From Saccharolobus solfataricus (GTDB lineage: Archaea; Thermoproteota; Thermoprotei_A; Sulfolobales; Sulfolobaceae): a DNA stretch of 32,000 nucleotides. Positions within the stretch are counted from its first letter, which is position 1. Each line of letters starts with the position of its first letter. The position numbers and the translations under genes are program-made. Where the stretch lies: NCBI RefSeq assembly GCF_900079115.1, contig NZ_LT549890.1, positions 1,080,001 to 1,112,000 on the forward strand. The letters are read 5' to 3'. Of the stretch, positions 2,507 to 28,384 are shown piece by piece. A model generated the notes under the pieces. That model was given only the letters and a program-made list of their open reading frames with translations, searched no databases and had not been told where the DNA came from.

Positions 2507-2793
2507 AATAATGAATTCGTAAAGGATGATTATAAACCTTAAATTTATACTTGCTTTGTGTTGAATTCTCACAAAGAGAGAGATAAGAGGGACTATAAAC
2601 CTAAATTGTACACTTGGAGGTAAATTGATAAGGAAGATAATATAGTAGTTCAGTGGAAAAATATTCAATATATCAACAAAGCAATTCAGAGTACTTATCT
2701 TCCTCCTTTTGTAAAAGCTTTCTGCAACCATTATTGCGAGATGCTGAAAGTATTTTGGGAAAGTTTTATTATTTAACAATCCTTCGTTATTAT

Positions 2794-4861: not shown

Positions 4862-5111
4862 ATGATGAGGTATAATAATTTTCTGGAAACACTAACGTCG
4901 ATGACTTGTGCTAGATGCGGATACGTCAGGGAAGATTTAACTCTCTTCGACCGCGTGTTTGTTTGTCCTAAATGCGGTTGGATAGTAGACCGTGACTATA
5001 ATGCTTCTCTCAACATCCTACACAGATCGGGGTCGGAACGACCCCTAGTGTGGAGCTCTGCCCTCTACCGCTGGCAAGGTGGGGGTATGAAGCAGGAAGC
5101 CCTGTCCGTTA
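4862..5111 (+). pseudogene. tnpB: IS200/IS605-family TnpB (OrfB) 3' fragment, 5'-truncated and split by an IS insertion (tail continues at 6337..about 6365)
   Basis: Zinc-ribbon/RuvC-III end of TnpB: [11 protein letters not shown]...[26 protein letters not shown]. It is followed by a GC-rich structured tail (ggggtcggaacgacccc...). The tail resumes after the IS as gtgcaaggtagttcactag. No N-terminal TnpB sequence lies upstream. Confidence 0.7.
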
Positions 5112-6499: not shown

Positions 6500-7739
6500 T
6501 TACGTGAGAGTGTCCGGAATGTAATTATCTGAACGAATAGATAAACAGAATGATAAATATTAATATTGCCAGAAGGGTAGGACCTGGATCACCGAGAAAA
6601 ACTTTATAATGGAAAAATATCAAGACGAGAGGATTTACCTATCGCGCATAGCGTTGCTTGATCGCGAGGAGGCGCGTCTCAGAGCTGAACGGCTCTACGT
6701 CCTGGAGGAGTCCTCCGTTGGATCGCGAGGAACATCTTGATGTTGTAGATCACTCCCAGGACGTGAAGGAAGACGTCGTTCCTCCAGGTCGTGGTCCCGT
6801 AGGGCCTCCAGAACGCGTTCAGGTAGGTGCCGAAGAACTCCACGTGGGCCCTCAGGGTAGTGAAGGGCTTCTCCCGCGCTATGAGCTGTGTCGGGGAGGG
6901 AGAGAATCCCCTGTCCGCGATCTTAATCCCCTTGAGCGGTGACTTGAACCTCTTGTCCGAGAAGTTGGCCGGCTTCACCGTGATGGACCTCACGAAGAGG
7001 GAGACGGAGATCACGGCTATGGCCTTGAGCCCGTAGTGCGAGACCCCTCTCTTCTTGGTCCACCTTCCCTCGAACCTCCTCTTGGTTCTCCCCAGGGAGA
7101 GCAGCTTCCTGGCCCTCTCCAGGTTACCTTCCCTCCTCTCCAGCTCCGCCTTCTCCCGAAAGGTCTCCACGCTCCTCTTCCCAGGAGGTAAGTCCAGTAG
7201 GAAGGAGTCCACTAGCCACGCCATGAAGTCCACGAGATGCGCGCTCGCAGGGAGGTAACTGGGTAGGCACTTCTCCTCAAGCTTGAAGGAAATCTCCAAC
7301 AACTTCTTCCTCACCCCGTACAACCTGCCCACGAAGTCGTGCAGCGTGCTCTTCCCCACCTTCCTCCCCACGAACCAGGCCACGACCACGTTCACGTTAA
7401 CCATTTTCACCGCGTCCCTATAGGAGCAAGAGTAGAGCACCATGACGATTAACAACTTCAAGTAAACCAGCGCGCCCTCGCCCAGAACCCTCTCCAAATC
7501 CATGGCGTCCAGCACGGGCTTGATCTCCGTTAACCATTTTTCCCTCCACGGCATATCCTCTATTGGGGGAAGAGGGTAGTACATCAGGTTTGGTATGTGT
7601 CTTAATGTTCTTGCCATGGTACTACCCTCTACTCCCATAACTTAAGTGTTACTCCAATTTAATCCAAGATAATGCTAAAAACCAATTTATTCTTGCCAAT
7701 AAAAATTCAATTTTTTACATTCCGGACACTCTCACGTAA
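6500..7739 (-). mobile_element. Insertion sequence, IS5 family (ISC1234-like by size), GC-rich
   Basis: Perfect 25-bp terminal inverted repeats: ttacgtgagagtgtccggaatgtaa at 6500-6524 and its reverse complement at 7715-7739. The core cgtgag...ctcacg spans exactly 1234 bp (6503-7736). The element interrupts the ABC ATPase just upstream of Walker A. Confidence 0.85.
6679..7638 (-). CDS. IS5-family transposase
   Basis: The InsH-type N-domain pattern (LKLLIVMVLYSCSYRDAVKMVNVNVVVAWFVG) and IADRGF motifs are typical of IS5. A hand count gives 38/60 G+C at 6661-6720, against 17/60 in a host line. An alternative start is ATG 7617 (MARTLRH). Confidence 0.75.
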   Translation of the reverse strand: MGVEGSTMARTLRHIPNLMYYPLPPIEDMPWREKWLTEIKPVLDAMDLERVLGEGALVYLKLLIVMVLYSCSYRDAVKMVNVNVVVAWFVGRKVGKSTLHDFVGRLYGVRKKLLEISFKLEEKCLPSYLPASAHLVDFMAWLVDSFLLDLPPGKRSVETFREKAELERREGNLERARKLLSLGRTKRRFEGRWTKKRGVSHYGLKAIAVISVSLFVRSITVKPANFSDKRFKSPLKGIKIADRGFSPSPTQLIAREKPFTTLRAHVEFFGTYLNAFWRPYGTTTWRNDVFLHVLGVIYNIKMFLAIQRRTPPGRRAVQL

Positions 7740-13305: not shown

Positions 13306-14367
13306 TTATCTATATTTTTTCGTAAATTTTTCTAACGTAGACTTATATATTAGATACGATGTTAGCCAAGTTATAGCAAATGTTCCTATGATTATGAATC
13401 CAATATTTTCCCAGTATATATTGCTAAGGAAGTTCACTTGATCCCAGAATGGTCCGGATAAGTTAAATTGACTTGTCACTAACCCTAATAACTCTATAGT
13501 ACCAACAAGATACGATACAATAATCGATATTAAAGTCATTGTTAGATTATACCATAACTTCCTGACTGGATCAGTGAACGCCCAGCCATAAGCTCCATTC
13601 ATGAAGAGACCATCAGTTGTATCTATTAATGTCATTCCTACTGTAAATAAGAATGGAAATACTAATAACGTATATAGCGGAACTTTTAGAAATATTCCAG
13701 CGGCTGCTGCAGAGATCGCAAGTAGTGCTGTTTCTGAAGCAGTATCAAATCCTAAACCGAATAGAAGACCAATTAAGTATAAATAATATTGGTTATTAAC
13801 AATCTTAAATAACTTACTGAAGTACTTATTCATAAAGCCTCTCTGCATCAGAACCTCCTCAAGTTTTCCCTTATCCACTTCCCTTTTCTTCAAATAAGCC
13901 TTGTATAAACGATATATTTCTAAAAGAACCAGGAAATTAAGAAAACCTATAATATATAGGAAACTACCACTTACTAAAGTCCCTATAATACTACCAAGCT
14001 TCTCTAGAAATGGGAGTTGTGATACTATATACCTAGTAGAAACTATTAAACCCAATGATAATAATATTACAATAGTTGAATGCCCAAGCGAGAAGAATAG
14101 ACCAGTAAATTGTGGGGGTTTACCCTCTTGTATTAACTTTCTGATCGAATTGTCTATTGCTGCCAAATGGTCAGCATCAACTGCATGTCTTAAACCCAGA
14201 AGGTATGACAAGATACCTAGGGTTAGGAAAGTTCCCACTATATGCTCCTCCTCTAAGCTCACTTTTACATTACTAACAACCCTTCCAGTGGTAAATAGCC
14301 AATAAAATAGTAATCCAGTTATAATGGCCTCCAATAAATAAAATATAACATACTTATTCCGATTCAT
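13306..14367 (-). CDS. NiCoT-family nickel/cobalt transporter (HoxN/HupN/NixA type)
   Basis: Carries the NiCoT signature RHAVDADHLAAIDN in TM2 and LGFDTASE in a later helix. 353 aa with 8 predicted TM helices. Confidence 0.85.
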   Translation of the reverse strand: MNRNKYVIFYLLEAIITGLLFYWLFTTGRVVSNVKVSLEEEHIVGTFLTLGILSYLLGLRHAVDADHLAAIDNSIRKLIQEGKPPQFTGLFFSLGHSTIVILLSLGLIVSTRYIVSQLPFLEKLGSIIGTLVSGSFLYIIGFLNFLVLLEIYRLYKAYLKKREVDKGKLEEVLMQRGFMNKYFSKLFKIVNNQYYLYLIGLLFGLGFDTASETALLAISAAAAGIFLKVPLYTLLVFPFLFTVGMTLIDTTDGLFMNGAYGWAFTDPVRKLWYNLTMTLISIIVSYLVGTIELLGLVTSQFNLSGPFWDQVNFLSNIYWENIGFIIIGTFAITWLTSYLIYKSTLEKFTKKYR

Positions 14368-15361: not shown

Positions 15362-15371
15362 GCTTTATTTG
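15362..15371 (+). promoter_or_regulatory. TATA box for hypA / Mrp-type hypB
   Basis: GCTTTATTTG is centred about 27 nt upstream of ATG 15393. Confidence 0.4.
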
Positions 15372-15392
15372 TGCAGAAAACAATTTAATACT

Positions 15393-15824
15393 ATGCATGA
15401 ATGGTCTATTGCCTACTCAATAGTTAAAACACTAACTGATAATTTTAACAAGAAAGTACTAAAAACTACATTAGTAATACCACATTTCTCATTTCTTGAC
15501 TTAGAAATACTTAAGGATGCATTTAATGAATTAAAGAAAGAAAATGGAATTACTCAAGATGCTGAGCTCGAAATTAAAATAGCTAAGCCTAGGTTTAGAT
15601 GTATGAATTGTAATAGGGAGTTCAGTCTGTCAGATGTTGAAAATCAACTAAGTAATGTTAGAAATCAATACGGTGAGGAATATCCTTTACACTTAATGCC
15701 AGAACTCTTCCCAACATTTTTAAAGTGCCCATATTGTGGTTCCCATGATATTGAAGCTAAGGGTCAAGAGATTTACATAGAGAATGTGGTGGAGGAAAGT
15801 GGATCCGTTGCGAGAACTAGCTAA
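15393..15824 (+). CDS. hypA: hydrogenase nickel-insertion protein HypA
   Basis: Has the N-terminal MHEWS motif (Ni site) and a zinc site from C70-x2-C73 (CMNC) and C112-x2-C115 (CPYC). Start set at the MHE methionine. The ORF track begins at an upstream TTG. Confidence 0.85.
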   Translation: MHEWSIAYSIVKTLTDNFNKKVLKTTLVIPHFSFLDLEILKDAFNELKKENGITQDAELEIKIAKPRFRCMNCNREFSLSDVENQLSNVRNQYGEEYPLHLMPELFPTFLKCPYCGSHDIEAKGQEIYIENVVEESGSVARTS

Positions 15825-16503
15825 GAGTAAGCTAAAAGGTAAGAAAGTTATTACGATAATGAGTAGTAAAGGCGGTGTCGGAAAAAGTGTAGTATCGGCC
15901 TTACTTTCACTTTCCTTAATATCATCTGTTACACTAATAGACATGGATATACATAGCATGGGAATAGCTAAGCTCTTTGGTATTGAGAATAGGAATCTAG
16001 AAGTATCAAAGGAGGGGATTGTACCAATAAAAATAAGAAACGTTAATCTAATCTCGCTTGCAAGTATTGTTAGAGATAGATATGTTATACTACCTGGTAG
16101 AAACCAAAGTAACGTTATGAGGGAATTGATAGCGTATTCGATAATAAATAGTGATTATGTCGTATTTGACTTACCACCAGGGTTGGGGGACGAGGTTCTA
16201 GTGTTGGAAGAGTTAACAGATTTTAAGCCAGTAGTAGTTACAACACCATCAAAGGTCTCAGTAAAGGTAGTTAAGAATTTGATAGAGTACATGAACGAGA
16301 GGGGAAAGAAATCATTGGTTGTAGTTAACATGTCTTACTTTAATTGTCATGGTGAAAGAGTATACCCATTTGGTTATTACGATGGCGAGGTAAACTTACC
16401 AATAGATCCTAACATAGAGGAATATATAGGTAAGATTCATGAATATTATGGAGAGGTGAAAAAGGTAATTGAGAAGGAGCTAATTCCTAAACTCGTTTTT
16501 TAA
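15784..16503 (+). CDS. Mrp/MinD-family P-loop ATPase, probable HypB functional equivalent
   Basis: Deviant Walker A VITIMSSKGGVGKSVVSA, plus DLPPGLGDE (Walker B/switch). The gene immediately follows hypA and overlaps it by 41 nt. Thermococcales use an Mrp/MinD-type ATPase with HypA. An alternative GTG start is at 15799. Confidence 0.7.
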   Translation: MWWRKVDPLRELAKSKLKGKKVITIMSSKGGVGKSVVSALLSLSLISSVTLIDMDIHSMGIAKLFGIENRNLEVSKEGIVPIKIRNVNLISLASIVRDRYVILPGRNQSNVMRELIAYSIINSDYVVFDLPPGLGDEVLVLEELTDFKPVVVTTPSKVSVKVVKNLIEYMNERGKKSLVVVNMSYFNCHGERVYPFGYYDGEVNLPIDPNIEEYIGKIHEYYGEVKKVIEKELIPKLVF

Positions 16504-17109
16504 AAACTCCCTTATTTTCTCATAAGCCTCCACTTCAACGTTTGTAGCGTTTTTGAAAAGGCTTACATAAAAATCAATTGATAGATTTAAATTTAGATGT
16601 TTATTATAGCCTAATTTCTCTGCTTCAGATTTATATAGTACCAATGGAATGGACATATTTCTAAACCTCACTTTAGTATAAACGAAATCTACTATGTGAT
16701 CTGTACCGCATTCTGCTATCAATTTCTTTTGGAATAGTTTAGAGGAAATATCATAGGGATTAATACCTATTACCTTCTCCTCACATAGATTATTAGTAAT
16801 AGTTACGATAAGCTGTTCATTGACTACCTTCTCACTATGTACTATTAAATCCCACTCCTTTAAGGTCTTTATGACATAATAAGGTGCGATCGCAACACTT
16901 GGTTTTACTATTGAAATAATAAGATTACCAAATTTTATTTTACCATTAAATATCTGTGATAAGATTACCTCTGATGGTAAATTCTCGATTAGATATCTTG
17001 CGGTTGGAATACTGCTAATCAAAGATATTAATCTGTCATTTATAACCCAAAAATTGTAGTTCTCGATGACAAGTAAGTTATAGGGAATTTCACCAATGAG
17101 ATTGACCAT
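16480..17109 (-). CDS. hypothetical protein, last gene of the hydrogenase operon
   Basis: 209-aa ORF, 22 nt downstream of the endopeptidase gene on the same strand. No motif recognised. Confidence 0.5.
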   Translation of the reverse strand: MVNLIGEIPYNLLVIENYNFWVINDRLISLISSIPTARYLIENLPSEVILSQIFNGKIKFGNLIISIVKPSVAIAPYYVIKTLKEWDLIVHSEKVVNEQLIVTITNNLCEEKVIGINPYDISSKLFQKKLIAECGTDHIVDFVYTKVRFRNMSIPLVLYKSEAEKLGYNKHLNLNLSIDFYVSLFKNATNVEVEAYEKIREFLKNEFRN

Positions 17110-17131
17110 CTTGTCATCTTCACTGGTTAAG

Positions 17132-17656
17132 TCAATTATTATTCACCACCCCGTAAAGCTTTTTAATTGTATCGTCTACGGTGACTTCGATCCCAAAATT
17201 CTTTTTCAAAAATTCGGTCAATGATAAAACTATTTGATCTAGTTTTCTTCTCAACTCCTCTGATAGTCCTAGCTTTACATCTAAGACATAAGGCTTACAG
17301 CCCACTAAGTATACTTCTGGAGCATAGCCCATGATCTTAAGAGTTGTTAAAATACTTTGTATCCCTACACCATGTGACCCTGAATACTCAAAATCTAATA
17401 CTGTAGAGGTCACCTCATCACTATCTATGTTAATGTCAATTCTACTTATATCGAAATCTTTATCCATCGCTACCGCATCAATTAAAATGATTATATCATA
17501 ATCTTTAAGTACTTCCATAGCTGATGCTCCAGCTGCTCCAAGATCTATAACATCACATCCCTTGACATTTCCGTATAGGGCTTCTGCCATATATGATCCA
17601 AATCCATCATCACCCATTAGCCTATTTCCAACTCCTACTATTGCTATCCTTTTCAT
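17132..17656 (-). CDS. hoxM: [NiFe]-hydrogenase maturation endopeptidase (HoxM/HybD/HyaD family)
   Basis: IAIVGVGNRLMGDDGFG (GxGNxxxxDDGxG), ILIDAV (Asp ligand) and SGSHGVG (His ligand). 174 aa. Confidence 0.85.
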   Translation of the reverse strand: MKRIAIVGVGNRLMGDDGFGSYMAEALYGNVKGCDVIDLGAAGASAMEVLKDYDIIILIDAVAMDKDFDISRIDINIDSDEVTSTVLDFEYSGSHGVGIQSILTTLKIMGYAPEVYLVGCKPYVLDVKLGLSEELRRKLDQIVLSLTEFLKKNFGIEVTVDDTIKKLYGVVNNN

Positions 17657-18424
17657 TTAAAAATCCCTCCAATACTTCTCACCTTCTGGAATAGGCTTCC
17701 AACTGGGCTTCTTTTGGGAATTCATTATCCTTCCGTGAAGTCTTACGAGCCTTGAGATCACTGGCATTAACTCCTCCCTCTCCTTAACTTGGTCTGTAAT
17801 CAATCTACCTACTAAATCCCTCGCCTTCAGCAAGTTGTCTGTAACGTCCTTCCATAATCCCCAGTCAGCTGAAGTGAGTTCTATAATTTTATTCCCCTCA
17901 ATATCGTATTTTAATAATAATGAGATCACATCTGATAAGTGTTTATCTAAAGCGAAATGAATCTGAAGCTTTGATAGTAATAAATCTTCCTCATTTAATG
18001 TAAACTCTGAGTTCCAATTAACTGGGATTACGTGGCTAAATCTCATTTCGTTGAAGTAATAAGCTCTTACCACTTTCTCTTCCTTGAAGAACATACTTAC
18101 AATATTTCCTAGTGTTTTCTCGAGGTGAAAGTATGGAGTGTAATCTAGATTGTACATAACTTGTTTAAACTTTTCCCTATCTTCAGTTCTTACTATGAAA
18201 TTAATGTCTTGAGGACCACTTCTTCTATACAACTTCATTATATCTGACGATAGTTTGTTATCCTTGACCTTATAGTAAACTGCGATGGATCCATAAAGTA
18301 AAGCAACTATCCCTTTCTCTTTACATTTCTCATATATTTTTTCAGCATCACTCAAATAATCATTAAACATCTTATTAACATCAATCTTTCTAAGTTGTGC
18401 ATCAAATGGGGAAATTCCAGACAT
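17657..18424 (-). CDS. hypothetical protein, possible nucleotidyltransferase-fold (NTP_transf_5 / KNTase-like) with helical C-domain
   Basis: 255 aa. LLYGSIAV...YRRSGPQDINFIV resembles the G[GS]...R...D.D.hh motif, but with Asn in place of the second Asp. The C-terminal helical part contains RLVRLH (an Rx4H-like string). The stop abuts the hoxM start. This is a weak by-eye call. Confidence 0.5.
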   Translation of the reverse strand: MSGISPFDAQLRKIDVNKMFNDYLSDAEKIYEKCKEKGIVALLYGSIAVYYKVKDNKLSSDIMKLYRRSGPQDINFIVRTEDREKFKQVMYNLDYTPYFHLEKTLGNIVSMFFKEEKVVRAYYFNEMRFSHVIPVNWNSEFTLNEEDLLLSKLQIHFALDKHLSDVISLLLKYDIEGNKIIELTSADWGLWKDVTDNLLKARDLVGRLITDQVKEREELMPVISRLVRLHGRIMNSQKKPSWKPIPEGEKYWRDF

Positions 18425-18471
18425 TATATTTACATATTATCTTAGTGATATATATTTTTACCTATATTTCT
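18425..18471 (-). promoter_or_regulatory. possible internal promoter within the hydrogenase operon
   Basis: This is the only sizeable spacer inside the 11-gene block (47 nt) and it is very AT-rich. On the minus strand AAAAATATATAT is centred about 29 nt upstream of ATG 18424. Confidence 0.3.
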
Positions 18472-18975
18472 TTATGTTTTTACTTTATCTAATAATTTTT
18501 CTAATTCGTTTAATAAACTTATAATATCAATAAAATTCTGTGATCTCTTTATAATCCTTATATACTTGTCTATTTGGATAGTCGTGAAATTCCTATTCAT
18601 CATTTTAAAATCTGGATCATTTGTAATTACAATTCCACAATTAGTGACACTACCAATTAATGGTAAAACGGAAGGTATCTGAAGTACTTTAGCAATATTA
18701 AAATCTCCCTCAACCTCTATATAAACCTCATAACTCCACACTATTTCATCCAATCTTAAAGAGTATCTAGCTTTAAGAAAATTTAATAGATCATTAACTA
18801 GTTTCTGAGACTCATCTCCAATAAACATGATCTGCTTTACGAAATTGCCACCTCTTTCATCTAATATTAGGTTAATCTTAACACCCCTAAAACTAAACTC
18901 TAAGGAACTTGTGTAAAAAAACGAATTAATAATTTCTCTAGGAATTGGTCTTAAAAAGGAAATTGTATAGACCAT
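18472..18975 (-). CDS. hypothetical protein (167 aa from ATG 18975; 185 aa if 19029 is used)
   Basis: ORF in the operon. ATG 18975 lies 5 nt after the upstream stop, whereas 19029 would overlap the upstream gene by 49 nt. No motif recognised. Confidence 0.5.
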   Translation of the reverse strand: MVYTISFLRPIPREIINSFFYTSSLEFSFRGVKINLILDERGGNFVKQIMFIGDESQKLVNDLLNFLKARYSLRLDEIVWSYEVYIEVEGDFNIAKVLQIPSVLPLIGSVTNCGIVITNDPDFKMMNRNFTTIQIDKYIRIIKRSQNFIDIISLLNELEKLLDKVKT

Positions 18976-18980
18976 TTCCC

Positions 18981-19427
18981 TTATTTTCCTAGCCTTCTTA
19001 ACACTTCCCTTTTCATCATTTCCTTGCATGTTTTACCCCACTTACTAATTTCTCCATCATTGTTCACAACTTCACATTCAATTACTATTAAATCTGGAGG
19101 TAAACTACCCATTACTCTAGCCATTTTAATAAAAGTATCAACATCCATGAAGTAAGCTTTCATTCCGCTATGAATTTCTAAAAAATCTGAAAAGGTGCTA
19201 CCATTAAACTCTGGTCTATATACTCTTAACTCCTCCTTCCCTCTCTTTTCACTTGCTAATAGAATAAGATTATCTAGATTAAGTTGAAATAAAAAAGTAG
19301 ATGCCTTAATTGCACCCAAACTTAAATCAATTACCTCAATACCCTCTAGTCTCATTTCTTCCATAACTAGCAATGGAATTTGATAATCTCCTTTATACCA
19401 ATAACCTATTGCTGCGATTTTTGGCAT
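18981..19427 (-). CDS. degenerate hydrogenase-endopeptidase paralogue (HybD-fold, metal ligands partly replaced)
   Basis: By-eye alignment to the adjacent HoxM. IAAIGYWYKGDYQIP aligns with IAIVGVGNRLMGDDGFG. IEVIDLSLGA aligns with CDVIDLGAAG. NLILLASE aligns with IIILIDAV (Asp to Ala). EIHSG aligns with SGSHG (His kept). PDLIVIECEV aligns with PEVYLVGCKP. Confidence 0.6.
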   Translation of the reverse strand: MPKIAAIGYWYKGDYQIPLLVMEEMRLEGIEVIDLSLGAIKASTFLFQLNLDNLILLASEKRGKEELRVYRPEFNGSTFSDFLEIHSGMKAYFMDVDTFIKMARVMGSLPPDLIVIECEVVNNDGEISKWGKTCKEMMKREVLRRLGK

Positions 19428-19750
19428 TTATTGGCACCTTTAGGTTTTATTGTTTCTGCTAGCTTCCATAATATATTTTCTGGGTTTTCAATATTTAAGG
19501 GAGTCACATTGCACGCTAATGCTGCTAACCTTCTTGATTCGCTTATCCTAATGTTCCTATTCTCTTTTATTTCTAAATTGAGGTTATACTCCCTTAAAAT
19601 CTCCTTTAGAATTGAAATTGAATCTTCTCTTTCCCTAATAACTGGGTAAATGAGTTCCTTAACACTTTGTTTAACATCTTCATCTAAAACTTTGGTTATA
19701 TCACTAATCATCTTGTCGAATCCTAAAATACGAAGTAGAAAACCACTCAT
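19406..19750 (-). CDS. hypothetical small protein (114 aa, helical and charged)
   Basis: The start codon overlaps the isp2 stop (ATGA at 19747-19750), which suggests translational coupling. No motif recognised. Confidence 0.5.
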   Translation of the reverse strand: MSGFLLRILGFDKMISDITKVLDEDVKQSVKELIYPVIREREDSISILKEILREYNLNLEIKENRNIRISESRRLAALACNVTPLNIENPENILWKLAETIKPKGANKCQKSQQ

Positions 19751-21018
19751 ATCTTTATCCCCCTATCCAGTAGCTCAGTAAAGTAGATCACTTTGAAATC
19801 GGCTTGTTTATCCTTTACTGCATTCTCTAGTGACAACATACAGTTAGGATCAAATACTATTACGCTCTTCCCTCCCCATTTGGTTAGCTGAGAAACGACG
19901 TAATTTCTAACTCTCTTCAGAATATCCTTTTTCTCACCTATCAATTCTACATGATGAGTACACGTGTATAATTTATCTGAAGATGGCTTCTCCTTAGGCT
20001 CAATGAATTGCGGAGCTGTTAGCCTTAATATCTCTCTAGGTGGCTCCTCAATACCACCCAGTCTACTGAGGAATTCTGAGTAGTGGACACTAGTAGGCGC
20101 TACTATATCAGCCTTTTCTAACTTTACTTTACCTTGCTTATACATGTCATACACAGTTTTGGTTAAATGTTCAACTTCTATTGGAGGAGTCTCCTTAATG
20201 CTCTTTGGACCTTGCCATCTTAGCCAGAAATACCCCATACCATCTGTGGTGATTATCTTTTTAACATTTAGTTTCATAGCAGTTTCATAAATTCTAACTA
20301 ATATACCTCTGGCAGTCTCAAAGTCACCCATAAGATATGCGTAATATCCTGGATCACTAATTTCAGAGCTTACAGTTACGCTGAGTTTTAGTTTACTTAA
20401 AACGCTTACGGTATTAGCCAAAACGTTAGTGTTTTGAATCTCCAAGGGTGAAGGAACATATAGTATTTCACTGTCCTTTTTATCTATATTAAAGCCTACC
20501 TTACTTGCTACTTCACCCCAATTTTCTATTCCAAATGCGTTTCCTTTTTCTTTAGAATTAATAATTAACTTCTCTGCACTTTCATAATTAAATCCAGAAT
20601 AGTGAAGAATCCTCCTCATTATTATAGCAGTATACCAATTTGGTACCTCCATTGGAGATGTATATGTACACGCTCCACATGCAGTACAATCATATGCAGA
20701 TTCAGTCCAATGTTTAAATTCATTTCCACTTATTCTTCTAAGCCTTAAATATCTAGCAACAATGCCATAACCAGTGTAAAACATTGAATATATTTTATTA
20801 ATTTCATACGTTCTCCAGGCTGGCACATCATAAAATTTCTTAGTTTCCTGCCAAAATGGGCATGAATAACTACAAATCCCACATCTCATACAATTCTCTA
20901 TTCCCATTACATCTGATGGAGTAAACTCATCAAAAGTCTTAGATGCTAATTTTCTATTTATTTCAACCTTTCCCTTACTCAACCTAAATCCCCCACATTT
21001 AAACTCTTCTTTTACCAT
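19747..21018 (-). CDS. isp2: Isp2-like Fe-S subunit (HdrD/DsrK-related) of the hydrogenase membrane module
   Basis: First ferredoxin motif CMRCGICSYSCP (C43, C46, C49, C53). Second motif CTACGACTYTSP (C111, C114, C117, with Ser121 where Cys is expected). The large C-terminal domain has no CC(G) motif. Start set at ATG 21018 (MVKEEF), a 20-nt overlap with isp1. The ORF track start is 21048. Confidence 0.7.
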   Translation of the reverse strand: MVKEEFKCGGFRLSKGKVEINRKLASKTFDEFTPSDVMGIENCMRCGICSYSCPFWQETKKFYDVPAWRTYEINKIYSMFYTGYGIVARYLRLRRISGNEFKHWTESAYDCTACGACTYTSPMEVPNWYTAIIMRRILHYSGFNYESAEKLIINSKEKGNAFGIENWGEVASKVGFNIDKKDSEILYVPSPLEIQNTNVLANTVSVLSKLKLSVTVSSEISDPGYYAYLMGDFETARGILVRIYETAMKLNVKKIITTDGMGYFWLRWQGPKSIKETPPIEVEHLTKTVYDMYKQGKVKLEKADIVAPTSVHYSEFLSRLGGIEEPPREILRLTAPQFIEPKEKPSSDKLYTCTHHVELIGEKKDILKRVRNYVVSQLTKWGGKSVIVFDPNCMLSLENAVKDKQADFKVIYFTELLDRGIKI

Positions 21019-21886
21019 ATACACTACCTGCAAATCCCTTCTGCACATAATACCAGAACATATGGAATGCCTTACTAAATGGCGTATATCCTATGAATAT
21101 TCCAATTAACGCTATGTGTAAACCATACCAGTTGGCTTGATTAGGTATACCTAGATATGGAAATCCCCAATCATATGCTGCCCCTAGACCAGTGATCATT
21201 ATGGCTGCTAATAATATTAAGAAAACGTAATCACCAACACTGCTAATCATTCTATGTCTGGTAGTATCATCAACTATTCTAGTAGCTAAATAACCTACTA
21301 AACCCGCTAATGCTAGCAAGGTCATAAAACTTCCATTAACTATTACTGATAATACACCCCATGGCGAAATTGTATTCGTTGCTACTTGAGCGGAATTCCA
21401 GGCTCCAACTGGATTCATTATTCCTCCTTGAGAATATGAATTTGGACCAAGTATTCCTATCTGATACCCTGAGGTAAATGACTCTGGTACTGATGCAGGC
21501 ATCAACCAACCAAGAATATTCTGAAGTCCGGTAAGTTCGCTATATATGTAGTTCCACGCTATAATGTGAATACCTACAACTATGATTAGACCTAATATGA
21601 AGATGTGGTTAAATATTGTCTCTAAGATCAATAATGGATCATTTTTAGCGGCTCTACCGAATGGTCTAGGAATCGCACTAACCGCTTCCTTAAATTCAGT
21701 AGCAAATCCAGCTTGTCCCTTTGTCGCGGCTCTTGAAAATAAAAATTCCCTAGCTATCCTATAAATAGCACCGAAAACAAAAAATATAATACCTATAGGG
21801 AAAATGACATCTAAGCCCCACCAATACAGACTTAATGGAGTCGCTGGACCACCATTTGCTCCTATTGCAGCATGGACTACTATCAA
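20999..21886 (-). CDS. isp1: Isp1-like integral-membrane di-haem b-type cytochrome (NarI/HdrE/DsrM family)
   Basis: Five or more TM helices. His pairs are H94/H107 in one helix (NHIFILGLIIVVGIH) and H257/H275, 18 residues apart, in the last helix. The last helix also carries the PFSKAFH motif typical of NarI-like proteins. The gene directly abuts the hynL stop. Confidence 0.7.
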   Translation of the reverse strand: MIVVHAAIGANGGPATPLSLYWWGLDVIFPIGIIFFVFGAIYRIAREFLFSRAATKGQAGFATEFKEAVSAIPRPFGRAAKNDPLLILETIFNHIFILGLIIVVGIHIIAWNYIYSELTGLQNILGWLMPASVPESFTSGYQIGILGPNSYSQGGIMNPVGAWNSAQVATNTISPWGVLSVIVNGSFMTLLALAGLVGYLATRIVDDTTRHRMISSVGDYVFLILLAAIMITGLGAAYDWGFPYLGIPNQANWYGLHIALIGIFIGYTPFSKAFHMFWYYVQKGFAGSVYGKRRV

Positions 21887-24145
21887 TTACTTCACCCTCA
21901 TTGCAAACTTATAGAATGCCTTTATGGATTCACTTAAATCTATAGGAGCTCCTAAGGTGATATATCTAACTTTACCGTTTGGCAAAACTACGTGAACCCC
22001 ACAAACGAAGCATGGGTCGAATGATCTTAGTGTTGCTGCAAATTCAAACCCATCCCATTGCTCTAATGGTGTTACTGTTAATTTTGGTATACCATTAATG
22101 TTATACCCTTGATTTCCTTGGATAACTTCCTCAAAAGTTCCAGCACCTCCATTTTTAGCCAATAATGAAAATGGTTGTATTTCCCCTATAACATCTTGAT
22201 AAGAGTTAACAACCCTAGGACCAGCATTTACTGTTGTTGGTTGTTGCTGCTGCGGGTTTATTGTAGGAACTGTGGGACCACTGCCTAAGGCTATAACTTC
22301 TGAGTGCCACTGTGCTCCTCTAGGTGCCTCTTTAAGGCCAACTCCTAGTGCAACATCCGTATTAGTATTCTTCTTATAGGTCCAATCATACTGGTTACCT
22401 CTACTAACTGCAGTTTGTCCTTGAGTCAGATACTTTACTGCAGCAAACCAAGCTATCCATCCACCAGCACCTTCTAAAGCCACAGCGTGAGCTCTAGCTC
22501 TCATTCTTTCCACAGCATTGGTAGTCACATTTATAGTACCGTTAGATAGCTTAGATGATAAGGCCCATGGTGAAACATACTTTATGTCTATCTCACCTTG
22601 TAGTTCTGGCGGTAATATTATCCTAGAAGAAACGGTTTGCGGTAAGTTCCATATTACTGATTGCTCATTACTATTATAATTGATTTCTATACCCGCAACT
22701 GAATATGTTGAAGTGTAAATTGGATCCGGACCTTGTGGCTGCAATACTTGAACCCACATAACAGCTTGCGGATCTGCCTCAACATTGAAGAAGGAGTTCA
22801 TAGTAGGTTTATGCCCAGAATATGGTACTATTCTCGGCGATACTGCCCAGCTATACTTATTCTGTGAATTTCCGCTTCCAAATGGATAGCCCCTAGCTAA
22901 TGGCATTGGTATTGTCCATTTCTTCCATGGATGATAATTACTTACTGGATTTCCTATTGGATCTTGCGAGATTCCAGAAACCTCTGACGGAACTTGAGGG
23001 TTGTTTACCCAATCCTCATAAAACGAAGACTCGATAAATTGTCTCATTCCTAGATTTATATCAATTAGACTATTAGTTACCAGTTGTGGGGGTGAATTTG
23101 GGCTTGTTTGTATTACCAGTCCAGGTTTAACTACTCTAGCCCTTCCCCATGCTCCCATGTTTTCATATGTAGCGTCATATTCCATAACTGAAGTTGATGA
23201 GGGGGTCACTGAGGGAGGTTCAGCTACATCACTTTGGCCATAGCATAAATAATTTCCTGGCCTATTACCCATTTCAGCAAAGCCTAAATTATTATATTTG
23301 TCGTAATACGCTTGTACACCGAAAGCGTTACCATAATCGGTTAAGAATAGATTTAACACTTCCCAATACGCTACTTGCTTCTTTAAGTATGCTGTTCCAT
23401 CTACTAATCTTTGTAAGTACTGTTGTAGGTTTTCTACAGTAGCAGGGACTCCTATCCCACCTGGAACCATGGTTATAGGATGCGGGACTCTTAAATAGTA
23501 TAATAGCTCAGCTTCATGAAATATTCTCCACACATATGCACCTTCCAACCATATCGCACCGATGATTGGAACTAGACCATCCATTATATCAGCCACTGTT
23601 CTCATGGTTACTCCGCTAAACTTTAGCTCGCTAGGAGCTCCATTTGGAAATGCTTCAGAATACTCTAAAACCTTGCTTATTGGTGTTTGTTGTGCTAATT
23701 GGTAAATTTCTGGTGGATAATAGCCTGCAATCTTAAAGAATAGTGAACTCCAATCTGGTCCACCTAAAGCTGTTAAATGTGCAGTGTGATCATACATCAT
23801 TGCAGCATCATTAGCTAACATGATAGTCTCTAGTCCTAACGGTGGTGGAGCATAACCGCCCATTGCCATTTCTTGCGCTATTCTCTCTATGAACTGATGA
23901 TGTTCTCCACATATTCCACACTCTCTGGATGATAACATTATGACATCTGGTGCTGGTTTATTCCTCATGAAGATCTCGAATCCTCTAAACATTCCTGCTC
24001 CAGCATATGCTTCTACAGCCCTGACTTGATTTTGACCTTCTATATTTACGCTTACTTGAATCCCTAACTCTGGCTTTATTCTAACTATGGGCTCTATTAC
24101 AACTGGCTTTGTCCAATCATATTTAAATAGGTATGAAGAGGCCAT
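21887..24145 (-). CDS. hynL: [NiFe]-hydrogenase large subunit (membrane-bound uptake type), unusually long at 752 aa
   Basis: N-terminal Ni-Fe ligand motif SRECGICGEHH (C76, C79). Also EAPRGAQWH. C-terminal motif DPCFVCGVH (C712, C715, H718) is followed by a 34-aa extension that would be removed by the endopeptidase. Confidence 0.9.
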   Translation of the reverse strand: MASSYLFKYDWTKPVVIEPIVRIKPELGIQVSVNIEGQNQVRAVEAYAGAGMFRGFEIFMRNKPAPDVIMLSSRECGICGEHHQFIERIAQEMAMGGYAPPPLGLETIMLANDAAMMYDHTAHLTALGGPDWSSLFFKIAGYYPPEIYQLAQQTPISKVLEYSEAFPNGAPSELKFSGVTMRTVADIMDGLVPIIGAIWLEGAYVWRIFHEAELLYYLRVPHPITMVPGGIGVPATVENLQQYLQRLVDGTAYLKKQVAYWEVLNLFLTDYGNAFGVQAYYDKYNNLGFAEMGNRPGNYLCYGQSDVAEPPSVTPSSTSVMEYDATYENMGAWGRARVVKPGLVIQTSPNSPPQLVTNSLIDINLGMRQFIESSFYEDWVNNPQVPSEVSGISQDPIGNPVSNYHPWKKWTIPMPLARGYPFGSGNSQNKYSWAVSPRIVPYSGHKPTMNSFFNVEADPQAVMWVQVLQPQGPDPIYTSTYSVAGIEINYNSNEQSVIWNLPQTVSSRIILPPELQGEIDIKYVSPWALSSKLSNGTINVTTNAVERMRARAHAVALEGAGGWIAWFAAVKYLTQGQTAVSRGNQYDWTYKKNTNTDVALGVGLKEAPRGAQWHSEVIALGSGPTVPTINPQQQQPTTVNAGPRVVNSYQDVIGEIQPFSLLAKNGGAGTFEEVIQGNQGYNINGIPKLTVTPLEQWDGFEFAATLRSFDPCFVCGVHVVLPNGKVRYITLGAPIDLSESIKAFYKFAMRVK

Positions 24146-24146
24146 T

Positions 24147-25496
24147 TTAACTCACCTCCTTAGCTTTTGGAATTATGGGTTTACCTCTTCTCCTAGATAA
24201 ATAATAAGAACCTACACCCACCACTATTCCGGCACCTACAGCTGCAGCTAGTAATGTTGTTGAAGGTAGAGTTGGTGCATTTGGTGGTGCATAGAATGGT
24301 TCATATAAATCTGGAAACCCTGGGGCAGTACAAGCGATACATACTCCACCTCTAGTGCATCCTCCTACACCACCGACCCAACCTAAAAGTGGGGCGGGAC
24401 TATTAGCTTCAGTACCCTTACATCCTAGGCTATAAGTACATTGAGGGTCTCCGAAATTCTTAGCAAATATGCCTTGTGCGAAGAATCCAGCTCTTGGACA
24501 ATTCTGATGGGTTTCATTTCCGTAAAAGTATTTTGGTCTATTGAAAACATCTAGAGATTCTGACGGTGCGGGACCTAATCCTCTGGCATATAGTACTCCA
24601 GCTACTAATGTTCTCATAATCCAATCCCCGGCAGGTGGATCAGCTGCGATTGCAACAATTGGTTGTTTTAACGTACTTAACCAATGATAACTTGGTCCGG
24701 GATATGCCGTATTATATGGCGAATTGGTAACAGCATATATATCTTCATCAATTACTTGCTCTCCTCTGAAGTAACCTAAACCTTTCTGATATACTTCATG
24801 TATATATGCAGGGAAACCTAAAATTCCCCTATAGGGATCATCTAGCATTCCCATAGTATATGTGGGACTTCTCTGTCCTAATCCATTTGTAGTGGAAGGT
24901 ATTCCCCCATATGTTGCACAAGCACCGGTAGCATAAACTAGAGCTGCTCTCTTCATTAGATTAAATACGAACTCGTCACATAATAGTACATGACCGCTAG
25001 GTGTTCTGCCGGCAGAACACCAGAAGGAGTCCTTGGGTTTTTGATAATATAGTCCAAATTCATCAAACATCGTACCCTCAACAACTAATACATAGGGGTC
25101 GAAAACCCCAGCTAATGCAGCCTCCATAGTAGGATAGGCCATATCATCTTGTGGCATAAGTATTGGGTGATAAACTAGATTTACGTTCCCTAGATTTGCT
25201 ATTGACGGAGCTCTTAATGTTATTGGTTGTAGATTTATTGTTACTTGCGTTATCACATCTTCTACAGCAGGGTTCATTGCATCTATAAACGCTATTGTGT
25301 TTCCTCCACACCATCCGTTCCCTGTCCATATCACGTTTATTGGATCTGCTAAAGAATCGCTAGCCATATTAAATAGATCTTTCCAAGTTAATCCCTTCTC
25401 CATCATCCAAGCTGTTAATCCTGTAATACCCGCTAGTTTCATGAAATCTCGTCTGCTTATTCCCACCTTTATTTGTCTAGGTTTAGGATCTTTCAC
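24147..25496 (-). CDS. hynS: [NiFe]-hydrogenase small subunit with Tat signal and C-terminal membrane anchor
   Basis: GTG start at 25496. Twin-arginine motif SRRDFMKLAG. Small-subunit motifs GACATYGG, HQNCPR, CTYSLGCKG and CIAC. C-terminal TM segment TLLAAAVGAGIVVGVGSYYL followed by RRRGK. Several canonical Cys positions are substituted (see findings). Confidence 0.9.
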   Translation of the reverse strand: MKDPKPRQIKVGISRRDFMKLAGITGLTAWMMEKGLTWKDLFNMASDSLADPINVIWTGNGWCGGNTIAFIDAMNPAVEDVITQVTINLQPITLRAPSIANLGNVNLVYHPILMPQDDMAYPTMEAALAGVFDPYVLVVEGTMFDEFGLYYQKPKDSFWCSAGRTPSGHVLLCDEFVFNLMKRAALVYATGACATYGGIPSTTNGLGQRSPTYTMGMLDDPYRGILGFPAYIHEVYQKGLGYFRGEQVIDEDIYAVTNSPYNTAYPGPSYHWLSTLKQPIVAIAADPPAGDWIMRTLVAGVLYARGLGPAPSESLDVFNRPKYFYGNETHQNCPRAGFFAQGIFAKNFGDPQCTYSLGCKGTEANSPAPLLGWVGGVGGCTRGGVCIACTAPGFPDLYEPFYAPPNAPTLPSTTLLAAAVGAGIVVGVGSYYLSRRRGKPIIPKAKEVS

Positions 25497-25585: not shown

Positions 25586-26584
25586 TCACGATCTATGAGA
25601 ATAATAATAGAAGATCGGAAACAACGAAACGAAAAAGGGTGTAAGTGATAGTACCATAACTGCTGAGATTACATTGTAAAAATAAGCTACTGATGCTCCG
25701 AAGAGTAACTCTGAAACGGCTGGGAGTAAGGACAAGTAGGGAACTATTCTTACATTCACTTCTTTCCTACTCATATCTACATAATAAAACATCATTGATG
25801 TCATTAAAAGTGTTGCAATTGCGTATGGAATTTGATTGATTGTTAGGGAATAATAAAATTCTGTTGAAGAAAGGGAAAGACTGGATATGGCGAATAGTAG
25901 ATAATAGAACGTATTAATCCTTCCGCTAATATATTTATAAGAAAAATAAATTGTGAAGATTACTGAGAGAAGTAGTTCAAGTATGGAAGACTCTTTAATG
26001 GGATCGTACGGTAATGGAAGTATTGAATGCGTCATCTCCGAGGCTATGTTTGGTCCTGCAAATATTAGGGAAGAAAGAAGAAGCGAATAAATGTTTCTAT
26101 ATTTAAAACTTAAGTAAGCTATTTCTGGAAACACCATGAGGAAGAACATGAACGAGTTAACAACTTCTAGAATTGCTGGAATTATAATTTGGGATATCGA
26201 TAACGAGAAGCTTGGAATATCCGTTGCATAAAAGTATAGGCTATATAGAGATTTTGTTAAATTACCCCTTAGTATTACGTAATATAGTAAGCTCATTAGA
26301 ATCTCTTGTATAACTAAGGAGGACACTATGGCAAATTTGTATTTTCCGAGATTATAACTTATCTGCATTATTAGCCAGAAATAAACAACAATTATTAATG
26401 ACAACATAAAGTCCGATAGGGAGAATAGTACGAAATATACCGCAGTTGATATATAACTTATGAGAAGAAAAAGGTATCCTAGTTTGTTCTTTAACGCGAA
26501 TTTATATGACATAGTGACTAATATGGTCATCGCGGATATGTAAAATATATAGAATAGTACTAACAAGTGGGTTTCACTGTTCAT
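25586..26584 (-). CDS. polytopic membrane protein of unknown function (about 332 aa, about 10 TM)
   Basis: Extremely hydrophobic and rich in Y/F/S/L/I. Start moved to ATG 26584 (MNSETH) because a TTTATAA box is centred 27 nt upstream, and the track's ATG 26623 lies upstream of that TATA box, outside the predicted transcript. Same strand as hynS and 89 nt upstream of it. Confidence 0.6.
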   Translation of the reverse strand: MNSETHLLVLFYIFYISAMTILVTMSYKFALKNKLGYLFLLISYISTAVYFVLFSLSDFMLSLIIVVYFWLIMQISYNLGKYKFAIVSSLVIQEILMSLLYYVILRGNLTKSLYSLYFYATDIPSFSLSISQIIIPAILEVVNSFMFFLMVFPEIAYLSFKYRNIYSLLLSSLIFAGPNIASEMTHSILPLPYDPIKESSILELLLSVIFTIYFSYKYISGRINTFYYLLFAISSLSLSSTEFYYSLTINQIPYAIATLLMTSMMFYYVDMSRKEVNVRIVPYLSLLPAVSELLFGASVAYFYNVISAVMVLSLTPFFVSLFPIFYYYSHRS

Positions 26585-26670
26585 ATGTTTACTCTTCTCA
26601 AAAATAATTATAAAGTTTACCATAATATACCTAGTATAGCTTATTAACTACTAAAGTAATTAGAATTTAT
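26585..26670. promoter_or_regulatory. divergent promoter region
   Basis: 86-bp AT-rich spacer between divergent genes. TTTATAA (reverse complement of 26608-26614) serves the minus gene. CTTATTAA (about 26639-26646) lies about 27 nt before ATG 26671. Confidence 0.35.
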
Positions 26671-27927
26671 ATGAAATTTCTATCATGGAGGGAAGCAGTT
26701 AATGAAAATAAGAAGCTGATAGTGTTATTTATGACTACTAGTTGGTGCGAAAGTTGTGAAGAGCAAGAAAAGGAATTACTTGAAATCGAGGATGAAAGAG
26801 TTTCCCTAGTTAAGGAAGATGCTGATGAAAGGTTGGATTTAGCTGTAAGATATACACCCCAAATTTACCCAACAATTAGTCTAATATCTAAAAATTCTGT
26901 CATTGGGGGAACTTACGGCTTAGTAAAAAGGGGCAAATTGATAGAAATGATAAGTGAGGCCTTAAAGCTAATAGAGGGAAAGGGTAAGTTTATAGTTCCC
27001 CCTAAACTGTCTTCCCAAAAAATTGATAAATTCCCACCAGATTACGCATTTAACCATATCTTAAGGGTTTGTGAGGGATATTTTGATTGGAAAGAGGGAG
27101 GATTTGAGAGGGAACCAAAGCATGTTTCTCCAGAAGTATTACAGCTATTCTTGCATTTTAATGATTATTATCATAAGATAATGGTGGAAGTAACGTTAGA
27201 TAACGCTATAGAATATTTATGGGAAAATGGATTTTGTATGTTTTCCAAGTCAGGAGATTGGAAGGAACCCTATAAGGCTAAATTATTAGACTATAATGCT
27301 GAAATGGTTAAGACGCTTGTTAAGGCGTACCAAGTTTTGAAAAAGGAGATCTACCTAGATTACGCAATTGCTACTACTGACTGGTTATTGAGTAAGAGGG
27401 ACAATAGGGGTTACTTCATCAATGGTGAATTTCTTGGAGTAGAGGATAAGAGACCATTTCTCAACGTTAATGCTAATGTTGGAGACGCCTTCATGGAAGT
27501 TTATAGGATTACCAATGACAAGAAATATCTGGAGATTGCAAAAGACTTAGAACAGAGATTAGTATTAGCACATAGAATGGATGTACTTTCTCCTCCATAC
27601 TTGATAGATTTAGCCTCATACTTAAATTTCCTCTCTAAACTTAATCCAGATAAAGCTAGAAATTTATTGCATATACTTGACGATTATAAAGGAAGTGAGG
27701 CTTATTACGACACGACATTAGGGTTTGCTACGGAGAACAAGATAGGTAGGTTTTACTTCCTTTACGATAATGTTTTGCTAGCAAACGCATTGATTAACCT
27801 TAATATTTTTGAAGAAGCCAAAAGAATTGTAGATATGTTTCTCTCCTCATATAGCATTTACGTATATTTTAACCAAGCTAAGTATGCTCTAGTTTTGGGT
27901 GAAATTTATGGTCTCTTTACTCACTAA
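26671..27927 (+). CDS. thioredoxin-fold + alpha/alpha-toroid protein (short YyaL/DUF255-like)
   Basis: N-terminal thioredoxin-like segment KKLIVLFMTTSWCESCEEQEKEL (CxxC). A central GGFEREPKHVSPEVLQLFLHF resembles the GGFG.APKFP...L.FLL motif of YyaL-type proteins. The C-terminus is repeat-helical. Confidence 0.55.
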   Translation: MKFLSWREAVNENKKLIVLFMTTSWCESCEEQEKELLEIEDERVSLVKEDADERLDLAVRYTPQIYPTISLISKNSVIGGTYGLVKRGKLIEMISEALKLIEGKGKFIVPPKLSSQKIDKFPPDYAFNHILRVCEGYFDWKEGGFEREPKHVSPEVLQLFLHFNDYYHKIMVEVTLDNAIEYLWENGFCMFSKSGDWKEPYKAKLLDYNAEMVKTLVKAYQVLKKEIYLDYAIATTDWLLSKRDNRGYFINGEFLGVEDKRPFLNVNANVGDAFMEVYRITNDKKYLEIAKDLEQRLVLAHRMDVLSPPYLIDLASYLNFLSKLNPDKARNLLHILDDYKGSEAYYDTTLGFATENKIGRFYFLYDNVLLANALINLNIFEEAKRIVDMFLSSYSIYVYFNQAKYALVLGEIYGLFTH

Positions 27928-28384
27928 ACTATATTTTCTTCTGATAGGTTTAAGCCAATTACCATTTTTATATGAAATTACAGTTCTGCTTCATTCTACG
28001 ACATCTTTTCCACTTATATACATAAATTATAGCCTAGGGATAATAATTATAGTTACCCTCATTTGTAACCTATTCATGTTATTAGATGGTTATACTAAAT
28101 ACGCTTCTGTCCTCCTTCTTGTTCCAGTTATAAATGTATTTATTATACCTTTTATCTCGTATAAGTTAACATCATCTAAACTATTAACCGGAATTACCTT
28201 TTCCCTATGGTTTTCTAACTTAGTCTTCACATTAATCTCCAATGTACCTACAACAATCTATTATGGAAGTGGTAAGTATTTTCTAGATAAATTTATGGTC
28301 TTAGATTTTCTCTCAGTTGCGTCTCTTATAATTATTGGATATTGTGTTATTTATAAGGAAAAGAAGATTTCCAAAAATAGGTAA
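27899..28384 (+). CDS. small membrane protein (161 aa, about 5 TM)
   Basis: Hydrophobic ORF overlapping the upstream gene by 29 nt, which suggests co-transcription. Confidence 0.5.
   Translation: MKFMVSLLTKLYFLLIGLSQLPFLYEITVLLHSTTSFPLIYINYSLGIIIIVTLICNLFMLLDGYTKYASVLLLVPVINVFIIPFISYKLTSSKLLTGITFSLWFSNLVFTLISNVPTTIYYGSGKYFLDKFMVLDFLSVASLIIIGYCVIYKEKKISKNR

Follow-up and report, generated by a model that had tools for sequence, protein, structure and literature searches.

Operons for membrane-bound [NiFe]-hydrogenases (MBH) of Proteobacteria, such as E. coli hyaDEF and Cupriavidus necator hoxMLOQRTV, carry small cytoplasmic genes downstream of the structural and cytochrome-b genes, among them a specific endopeptidase, and these strings are dedicated to one uptake hydrogenase that is exported by the twin-arginine (Tat) route and exposed to O2. 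A string of similar layout, composed of six open reading frames (ORFs) here called orf114, orf148, orf185, orf255, pep174 and orf209, lies on the minus strand of a 32,000-nt stretch of Saccharolobus solfataricus DNA (contig NZ_LT549890.1, positions 1,080,001 to 1,112,000; hereafter the window, in which all coordinates are counted), directly behind the structural genes of a hydrogenase of the SUL2 clade. Unlike the proteobacterial strings, it contains no detectable member of their families (HyaE/HoxO, HyaF/HoxQ, HoxR, HoxT, HoxL/HypC, HoxV/HupK) other than the endopeptidase, and its remaining genes encode an endopeptidase paralogue, a nucleotidyltransferase-like protein, a protein with a predicted type-II periplasmic-binding-protein (PBP2) fold and two orphans. 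On balance we consider it probable that the six ORFs are a dedicated cytoplasmic maturation and assembly set of the SUL2 enzyme, which would place them within a question described as open in a recent review, namely how [NiFe] centres are assembled in air, heat and acid without HoxO, HoxQ, HoxR, HoxT, HoxV and HypX (PMC12134894).

A second point of comparison is the group 1g hyn cluster of Acidianus ambivalens, in which, as reported from Laska et al. 2003 in PMC5461723, hynZ, hypY and hypZ (201, 70 and 143 aa) accompany hoxM. As far as that description goes, this cluster likewise combines lineage-specific hypothetical genes of similar size with the endopeptidase of an Isp-type hydrogenase; the enzyme differs in belonging to another clade, in being anaerobic and in having its isp genes between those of the small and large subunits.

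SUL2 hydrogenases were recognised in 2024, and in A. brierleyi the SUL2 enzyme is the dominant hydrogenase under oxic conditions; its part in atmospheric H2 uptake was left unresolved, the cytoplasmic electron acceptor of Isp2 is not known and the neighbours of the SUL2 genes were shown only as 'hypothetical cytosolic proteins' (PMC11018855). In native gels the active A. brierleyi SUL2 complex, of about 211 kDa, consisted of the four structural subunits only (PMC11018855), which argues that the neighbouring genes do not encode stoichiometric subunits. The large subunit from the window, HynL, is leaf NZ_LT549890.1_1268 in the tree file for Fig. 3 of Leung et al. 2024 and belongs to a clade with 100% support that also contains A. 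brierleyi DFR85_RS30060 and sequences of M. sedula and M. yellowstonensis (PMC11018855). The hydrogenases reported for M. sedula are of the SUL2 and group 2e types only (PMC11018855), and this clade is therefore taken as SUL2; the gene order hynS-hynL-isp1-isp2 found in the window also matches the published description.

Linkage of the six ORFs to SUL2 hydrogenase genes

The hydrogenase genes and the ORFs that follow them are listed below in the order in which they are read.

hynS, 24147-25496, minus strand: structural gene whose product carries the Tat motif RRDFMK
hynL, 21887-24145, minus strand: [NiFe] large subunit, SUL2 clade
HynL C-terminal extension, 21890-21991, minus strand: 34 codons after DPCFVCGVH, the expected endopeptidase substrate
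isp1, 20999-21886, minus strand: structural gene
isp2, 19747-21048, minus strand: structural gene
orf114, 19406-19750, minus strand: small basic soluble protein, 114 aa
orf148, 18981-19427, minus strand: predicted diverged endopeptidase paralogue (HycI/HybD fold)
orf185, 18472-19029, minus strand: soluble alpha/beta protein (alternative start at 18975, giving 167 aa)
AAAAATATATAT box, 18448-18459, minus strand: candidate archaeal TATA box, proposed from the spacer sequence and its conservation elsewhere
orf255, 17657-18424, minus strand: probable nucleotidyltransferase-fold protein
pep174, 17132-17656, minus strand: canonical hydrogenase maturation endopeptidase by its PF01750 and TIGR00072 scores
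orf209, 16480-17109, minus strand: predicted cytoplasmic PBP2-fold protein (like ModA or LysR effector domains)

The minus strand thus reads hynS-hynL-isp1-isp2-orf114-orf148-orf185-orf255-pep174-orf209, and the products of orf114 to orf209 are identical to proteins SAI84828-SAI84833. The initial annotation of the window had described six tightly coupled ORFs, and a base-by-base check found their minus-strand coordinates and all five of the junctions that it quoted to be exact: the stop codon of isp2 and the start codon of orf114 share ATGA (19747-19750), orf114 and orf148 overlap by 22 nt (19406-19427), a 5-nt spacer (GGGAA) separates the orf148 stop from the second ATG of orf185 (18975), the TAA of orf255 and the ATG of pep174 abut (17657/17656), and pep174 and orf209 are 22 nt apart. 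An upstream ATG of orf185 at 19029, 54 nt before that at 18975, would give a product of 185 aa and an overlap of 49 nt with orf148; a purine-rich stretch precedes both candidate starts, either of which is plausible.

A sixth junction, between orf185 and orf255, was not mentioned in that annotation; it is a 47-nt spacer (18425-18471) with a TATA-like AAAAATATATAT box that precedes the ATG of orf255 by 24-35 nt. L011, L001, L014, L004 and L006 (locus handles of this study) have a comparable (A/G)ATATATAT box equally far from orf255, which is kept even at a locus where orf255 stands apart from the operon, and in other genomes orf255, the protease gene and orf209 move as a block that is independent of isp2-orf114-orf148-orf185. 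Because of this conserved box and the independent movement of the block, the genes probably form two units, A (isp2-orf114-orf148-orf185) and B (orf255-pep174-orf209), an arrangement of three plus three ORFs being likelier than a single string of six. The AAAAATATATAT box itself, to judge by its position and conservation, is probably an internal promoter of unit B; a scan of the window for bacterial sigma-70 promoters and terminators is uninformative for an archaeon.

Approximately 15 usable loci were collected from a genome-contig scan with HynL (three loci), contig look-ups of orf255 relatives and a metagenome scan with an orf148 profile, and they originate from Sulfurisphaera, Stygiolobus, Metallosphaera, a Sulfolobaceae archaeon and hot-spring metagenomes. 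At every locus with enough flanking sequence (the window, L001, L002, L004, L005, L009, L011, L012, L014 and L016) the five ORFs other than pep174 lie no more than 10 kb from SUL2 hynSL, and the partial loci agree with this. The genes are arranged in three ways: colinear with the window; with unit B detached; and, in a Metallosphaera type, with orf209 and orf148 abutting as a pair that diverges from hynS, with orf114 and orf185 behind isp2, and with orf255 at a distance of a few kb. Throughout these rearrangements orf209 always adjoins a gene for an endopeptidase fold, following pep174 or preceding orf148 with abutting codons, and orf255 is always directly upstream of pep174 wherever the latter is present. 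Close relatives of orf255 stood beside SUL2 genes on all five contigs that were looked up (L004-L009), and all ten metagenome loci found with the orf148 profile were in SUL2 context. Homologues of orf114 follow isp2 in L001, L002, L004, L005, L009, L011-L016 and L020; this is the least conserved gene of the set, with a 75-aa form in L005 / Stygiolobus.

Database-wide searches returned 13-20 clusters per ORF, and every named one was from Sulfolobales except for one metagenome-assembled genome labelled Methanomethylicia, whose sequence is among the close orf255 relatives. The link to hydrogenases has an exception in five remote orf255 relatives (24-28% identity), for which one contig was read and had no adjoining hydrogenase. 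The suggestion that the ORFs are a lineage-specific module accompanying this type of hydrogenase across Sulfolobales is supported, and the association survives rearrangement; orthologous clusters do contain the ORFs, and no homologues among insertion sequence (IS) or viral genes were found.

In comparison with the closest locus, L011, the ratios of nonsynonymous to synonymous divergence (dN/dS) are 0.12-0.27 for the six ORFs, indicating purifying selection (orf114 0.18, orf148 0.19, orf185 0.27, orf255 0.14, orf209 0.12 and pep174 0.23, with values of 0.03 for hynL and 0.12 for isp2). Since all six products are soluble and have neither a signal peptide nor a Tat motif, they are predicted to be cytoplasmic, which is where maturation happens.

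The synonymous divergence (dS) from L011 is 0.05-0.18 for orf255, pep174 and orf209 and 0.23-0.43 for the structural genes and orf114-orf185, which hints at different recombination histories of the two units. Signs of decay are also seen in some strains. The orf209 homologue of S. javensis (L004, 11318-11938) has an apparent in-frame stop and is called as 144 aa, orf209 is fragmented in LAL14/1, and in S. islandicus L.D.8.5 and L.S.2.15 HynL is reduced to fragments of 64 aa, whereas the orf255 and protease genes are intact, as is orf209 in L.D.8.5. The PF11485 (STK_08120-like) label in S. javensis was found to belong to an extra neighbouring gene and not to the orf209 homologue.

Folds and altered residues of the encoded proteins

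None of the five ORFs other than pep174 gave a match with E<=1 to HyaE/HoxO, HyaF/HoxQ, the HoxR rubredoxin, HoxT or HypC/HoxL in Pfam and NCBIfam. The initial annotation's remark that motifs of the classical accessory proteins are missing thus stands for these families, with the qualification that orf148 falls within the endopeptidase family.

By its sequence, pep174 is a regular maturation endopeptidase of the HybD/HycI/HoxM type. It matches PF01750 with 48.5 bits (cut-off 23) and TIGR00072 with 87.8 bits (cut-off 47.45), its residues D16, D17, D60 and H95 are invariant in six orthologues, and D17, D60 and H95 provide the three metal ligands, which in the numbering of E. coli HybD are E/D16, D62 and H93 (Fritsche et al. 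1999, cited in PMC12134894). A cognate substrate is encoded nearby in HynL, in which DPCFVCGVH is followed by the conserved 34 residues. Every full-length SUL2 HynL sequence that was recovered has this extension. At 74-100% identity, compared with 69-89% for HynL as a whole, it equals or exceeds the entire protein in conservation, an unusual property in a stretch that is ordinarily cut off and lost.

The product of orf148 shares the profile of this family end to end and differs in the metal site. BLASTP of orf148 against pep174 gave E=0.005, alignment of the two families with hhalign gave 94% and E=1.5e-7 over 145 columns from end to end, and seven of the nine members of the orf148 family match TIGR00072 (best E=1.8e-10). 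In place of D17, D60 and H95 of pep174 it has Y15, S59 (A58 in the BLAST register) and Y92, and there is no conserved carboxylate or histidine at the three ligand positions; its own invariant residues are D14, E117-C118-E119 and C134, the region of E117-C118-E119 and C134 being the C-terminal edge of the sheet. Because of the end-to-end family alignment and the TIGR00072 matches, we regard orf148, as far as alignments can tell, as a diverged endopeptidase paralogue that has lost all three metal-ligand residues, and probably as a non-catalytic 'pseudo-protease', that is, a homologue in fold and not a functional member of the family. No such ligand-less endopeptidase paralogue is described in the literature searched. 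Of the matches in an exhaustive HMMER search with orf148, P0048 and P0052 alone were accepted as genuine relatives; the long matches in multiple stretches were discounted, the one inspected, P0049, being an artefact of low-complexity repeats. A metagenome scan with the remote relative P0052 gave no loci.

For orf255, 13 of the 20 family members match PF14907, six match DUF6036 and two match ANT(2''), in all cases below the gathering score. It resembles polymerase-beta-type nucleotidyltransferases in its catalytic core, keeping the G-S part and the first aspartate of the motif (G45-S46 ... D73-I-N75), and differs from them in that the second aspartate of the [DE]-x-[DE] pair is replaced by asparagine: D-[IV]-N occurs in 15 of 15 close relatives (>=42% identity) and D-x-D in five of five remote ones, with a variable third acidic position across the family. 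The fold of orf255 is probably that of a nucleotidyltransferase, the catalytic motif having degenerated.

Structure comparison, which the initial annotation had suggested as a check, was carried out with AlphaFold2 models of orf209 and orf185, and its outcome was divided, with a predicted PBP2 fold for the former and no match below 1e-3 for the latter. The orf209 model has a mean predicted local distance difference test score (pLDDT) of 62 and a predicted template-modelling (TM) score of 0.61, with values of 75-89 in the C-terminal half. Foldseek against the PDB returned 55 matches with E<1e-3, and the best 50 of these 55 are almost all of the PBP2 fold (TM 0.45-0.50), including the ModA-like 4kd5 and 7tav and the effector domains of CynR, NtcB, BenM and OxyR. 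SBP_bac_11 (PF13531) is matched weakly by two of eight family members (E=0.014). Orf209 models as a cytoplasmic PBP2 domain of the ModA or LysR-effector type, resembling ModA-type oxyanion binders and LysR effector domains in its predicted fold and having a ModA-like 'V-L-Y-K-S-E-A' segment. It differs from them in being shorter and in having no DNA-binding domain, and no hydrophobic N-terminus, lipobox or twin-arginine motif was found such as would mark an exported substrate-binding protein of a transport system.

The orf185 model (pLDDT 69) has a confident N-terminal alpha/beta domain, with values near 90 for residues 20-100. Its best Foldseek matches are TATA-binding proteins (TBP; E=2.4e-3, TM 0.39). 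This structural match is not significant, and no internal repeat, as would support a TBP-like pseudo-dimer, was detected when the N-terminal and C-terminal halves were aligned with hhalign (E=0.18). For orf114 there is no match in Pfam, NCBIfam, PDB, PHROG or PADLOC, and the name 'RNase L inhibitor' given to it in UniRef is supported by no search. Profile searches of PDB sequences with the orf148, orf209, orf255, orf185 and orf114 families gave nothing significant.

The initial annotation had also proposed that the ORFs are non-homologous functional analogues of the bacterial accessory proteins, which is wrong for orf148, being an endopeptidase paralogue, and doubtful for the nucleotidyltransferase-like orf255 and the PBP2-like orf209. 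Nothing found here lends direct support to its suggestions of Tat proofreading, Fe-S ligand remodelling or protection against O2 or acid, and a content of one to two cysteines per ORF argues against Fe-S proteins.

A candidate assembly set and its alternatives

A dedicated accessory set of the SUL2 hydrogenase is favoured because of the nickel and Hyp genes in the neighbourhood, the conserved HynL extension and the native complex of only four subunits. Besides pep174, the following genes adjoin the ORFs in the window, and hypF and hypCDE adjoin them in other genomes.

NicO nickel transporter, 13306-14367, minus strand: from Pfam/NCBIfam annotation of the neighbourhood
hypA, 15369-15824, plus strand: from annotation of the neighbourhood
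Mrp/MinD-type P-loop ATPase, 15784-16503, plus strand: from annotation of the neighbourhood; we take it to be the archaeal stand-in for HypB

Under this explanation, unit A (orf114-orf148-orf185) would be translationally coupled to isp2 and unit B would probably be expressed from a promoter of its own. The Hyp proteins, together with HypA and Mrp, would load Fe(CN)2CO and nickel into pre-HynL, after which pep174 would cut off the 34-residue extension. Orf148 would attach to this same part of pre-HynL but neither sense nickel nor cut, and would act as a chaperone that holds or proofreads it until the cofactor has been inserted or HynS has been paired, and orf209, as a ligand-binding PBP2 domain, and orf255, with its crippled D-x-D motif, may be non-catalytic or ligand-gated partners in the step carried out by orf148 and pep174. 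The homologies, residue losses, synteny, selection and cytoplasmic location are shown by the sequence analysis, whereas we infer every protein-protein contact and the order of events in this scheme; the roles assigned to pep174, orf148, orf209 and orf255 are each put forward tentatively, and orf185 and orf114 are given no specific part in it.

Several observations weigh against the proposal of a dedicated set. Taken alone, orf148 from the window reaches no Pfam or NCBIfam family threshold; orf255 from the window scores 14.7 bits against PF14907 (E=0.024), and its family reaches at most 23.8 bits where the cut-off is 31.2; the N-terminal 90 residues of orf209 are poorly modelled, with pLDDT below 50 in the N-terminal lobe; and orf185 and orf114 remain without assignment to a fold or family. 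On one metagenome contig, L017, synteny is lost before the expected position of orf255, and the gene that relatives carry there is missing. In addition, loci of the Metallosphaera type (L002, L006, L016-L019) carry orf148, orf209 and orf255 but no canonical endopeptidase within about 20 kb, so that the split of tasks between pep174 and orf148 proposed above is provisional.

A more far-reaching version of the assembly set, which we hold to be rather unlikely, is that maturation of SUL2, an aerobic enzyme that may oxidise atmospheric H2, proceeds largely through pseudo-enzymes, a nickel-blind orf148, a crippled orf255 and the PBP2 domain of orf209 jointly holding and gating the HynL extension. 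If true, this route would constitute a checkpoint, or a new step of ligand or metal delivery, without a counterpart among the bacterial Hyp, Hox and Hya proteins.

The Metallosphaera-type loci also bear on the possibility that orf148 is itself an active, non-canonical endopeptidase specific for SUL2, with a site formed by D14, E117-C118-E119 and C134, and that pep174 serves a SUL1 or group 2e enzyme. These loci keep the HynL extension along with orf148 despite having no canonical protease gene nearby, in L007 and L009 unit B lies nearer to a second, SUL1-like hydrogenase, and the invariant acidic and cysteine residues of orf148 could suit such a function. However, all three residues that define the metal site of the family are replaced in orf148, pep174 belongs to a SUL2-only cluster in the window, L001, L004, L011 and L014, and Metallosphaera may have a protease gene elsewhere, which makes an active orf148 improbable. 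No second protease was seen near SUL1 among the further neighbours of the related loci.

It is also improbable that some of the ORFs regulate or sense the expression of the hydrogenase, with orf209 as a lone LysR-type effector domain, orf185 as a TBP-like DNA binder and orf255 as a signalling nucleotidyltransferase. Such functions are suggested by the top structural matches of orf209 to NtcB, CynR, BenM and OxyR effector domains and by those of orf185 to TATA-binding proteins. But the latter match falls short of significance and orf185 has no internal repeat, orf209 lacks a DNA-binding domain and is equally ModA-like, in keeping with its weak SBP_bac_11 match, the catalytic motif of orf255 is degenerate, and the coupling of the genes to isp2 and to the protease gene is typical of enzyme-associated genes and not of regulators.

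Very doubtful, in turn, is a role of the ORF products as additional subunits that bind loosely, or as partners of Isp2 in cytoplasmic electron transfer, as might be thought from the translational coupling of unit A to isp2 and from the missing cytoplasmic acceptor of Isp2 (PMC11018855). Low cysteine content is accompanied by the lack of any signature of Fe-S, flavin or nucleotide binding in Pfam and NCBIfam, only four subunits are present in the active native complexes of A. brierleyi (PMC11018855), and one of the ORFs is a protease paralogue. Finally, that the ORFs are unrelated passengers of the operon, whether mobile, viral or spurious frames, would agree with the IS elements that flank the island but is contradicted by their conservation with SUL2 across genera and rearrangements and by the purifying selection acting on them, with no match to phage (PHROG) or defence (PADLOC) families for any of the ORFs, and can practically be dismissed.

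With the dedicated assembly set as the preferred explanation, the five ORFs are good but unproven candidates for assembly helpers, three of the five being altered copies of known folds. An anonymous string of genes has in this way become a short list of candidates with defined folds and missing residues that accompany SUL2 inseparably in different genera; what it offers to an open problem is a well-defined set of candidates rather than proof of a new mechanism. UniRef already labels orf148 automatically as 'Hydrogenase maturation protease' and orf255 as 'Nucleotidyltransferase', so that the fold hints as such are not novel. As far as our searches show, what is new is that the ORFs are strictly linked to SUL2 and probably form two units, that orf148 has lost all three metal ligands, that orf255 has a D-x-N motif and that orf209 models as a PBP2 domain. 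If orf148 is indeed a non-cleaving chaperone, it would be, within the same searches, a new type of hydrogenase maturation factor, and producing this heat- and oxygen-compatible enzyme in a foreign host would require it.

Neighbouring genes and wider features of the window

The 3' end of the ATPase gene overlaps that of orf209 by 24 nt (16480-16503), and the nickel-handling genes converge on the operon. Upstream of hynS, a 345-aa polytopic membrane protein without a family (25586-26623, minus strand) is co-conserved with SUL2 in nearly all related loci, as is, nearly everywhere, a divergent 418-aa protein with thioredoxin and six-hairpin (GH127/C5-epimerase-like) domains (26671-27927, plus strand); both are possible further members of the accessory set. 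A 161-aa ORF without a family (27899-28384, plus strand) overlaps the 3' end of the thioredoxin-like gene, and genes likened to it by size (157-166 aa) and position alone are found at the same place in L004, L005 and L006.

Among the related loci, L009 encodes beside hypC a 392-aa truncated large-subunit-like protein (5042-6220), possibly a scaffold of the HupK/HoxV type; a gene of the class-II aldolase/adducin family always adjoins hypD (L005, L006 and L007), and between hypE and hypC there is a zinc-ribbon-like gene of 83-84 aa.

No Rfam families or tRNAs were found in the window. The hydrogenase island is flanked by transposase ORFs at 5126-6256 (DDE_Tnp_1/DUF4322), 6679-7638 (DUF772) and 30175-31140 (DDE_Tnp_1), and the GC content between 5 and 8 kb is 0.45-0.49, compared with about 0.34 elsewhere. 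Two further genes, as far as seen unrelated to the six ORFs, encode a fused YHS-Rdx domain protein (2653-3195, plus strand) and a NosD-like right-handed beta-helix protein (28423-29382, plus strand).

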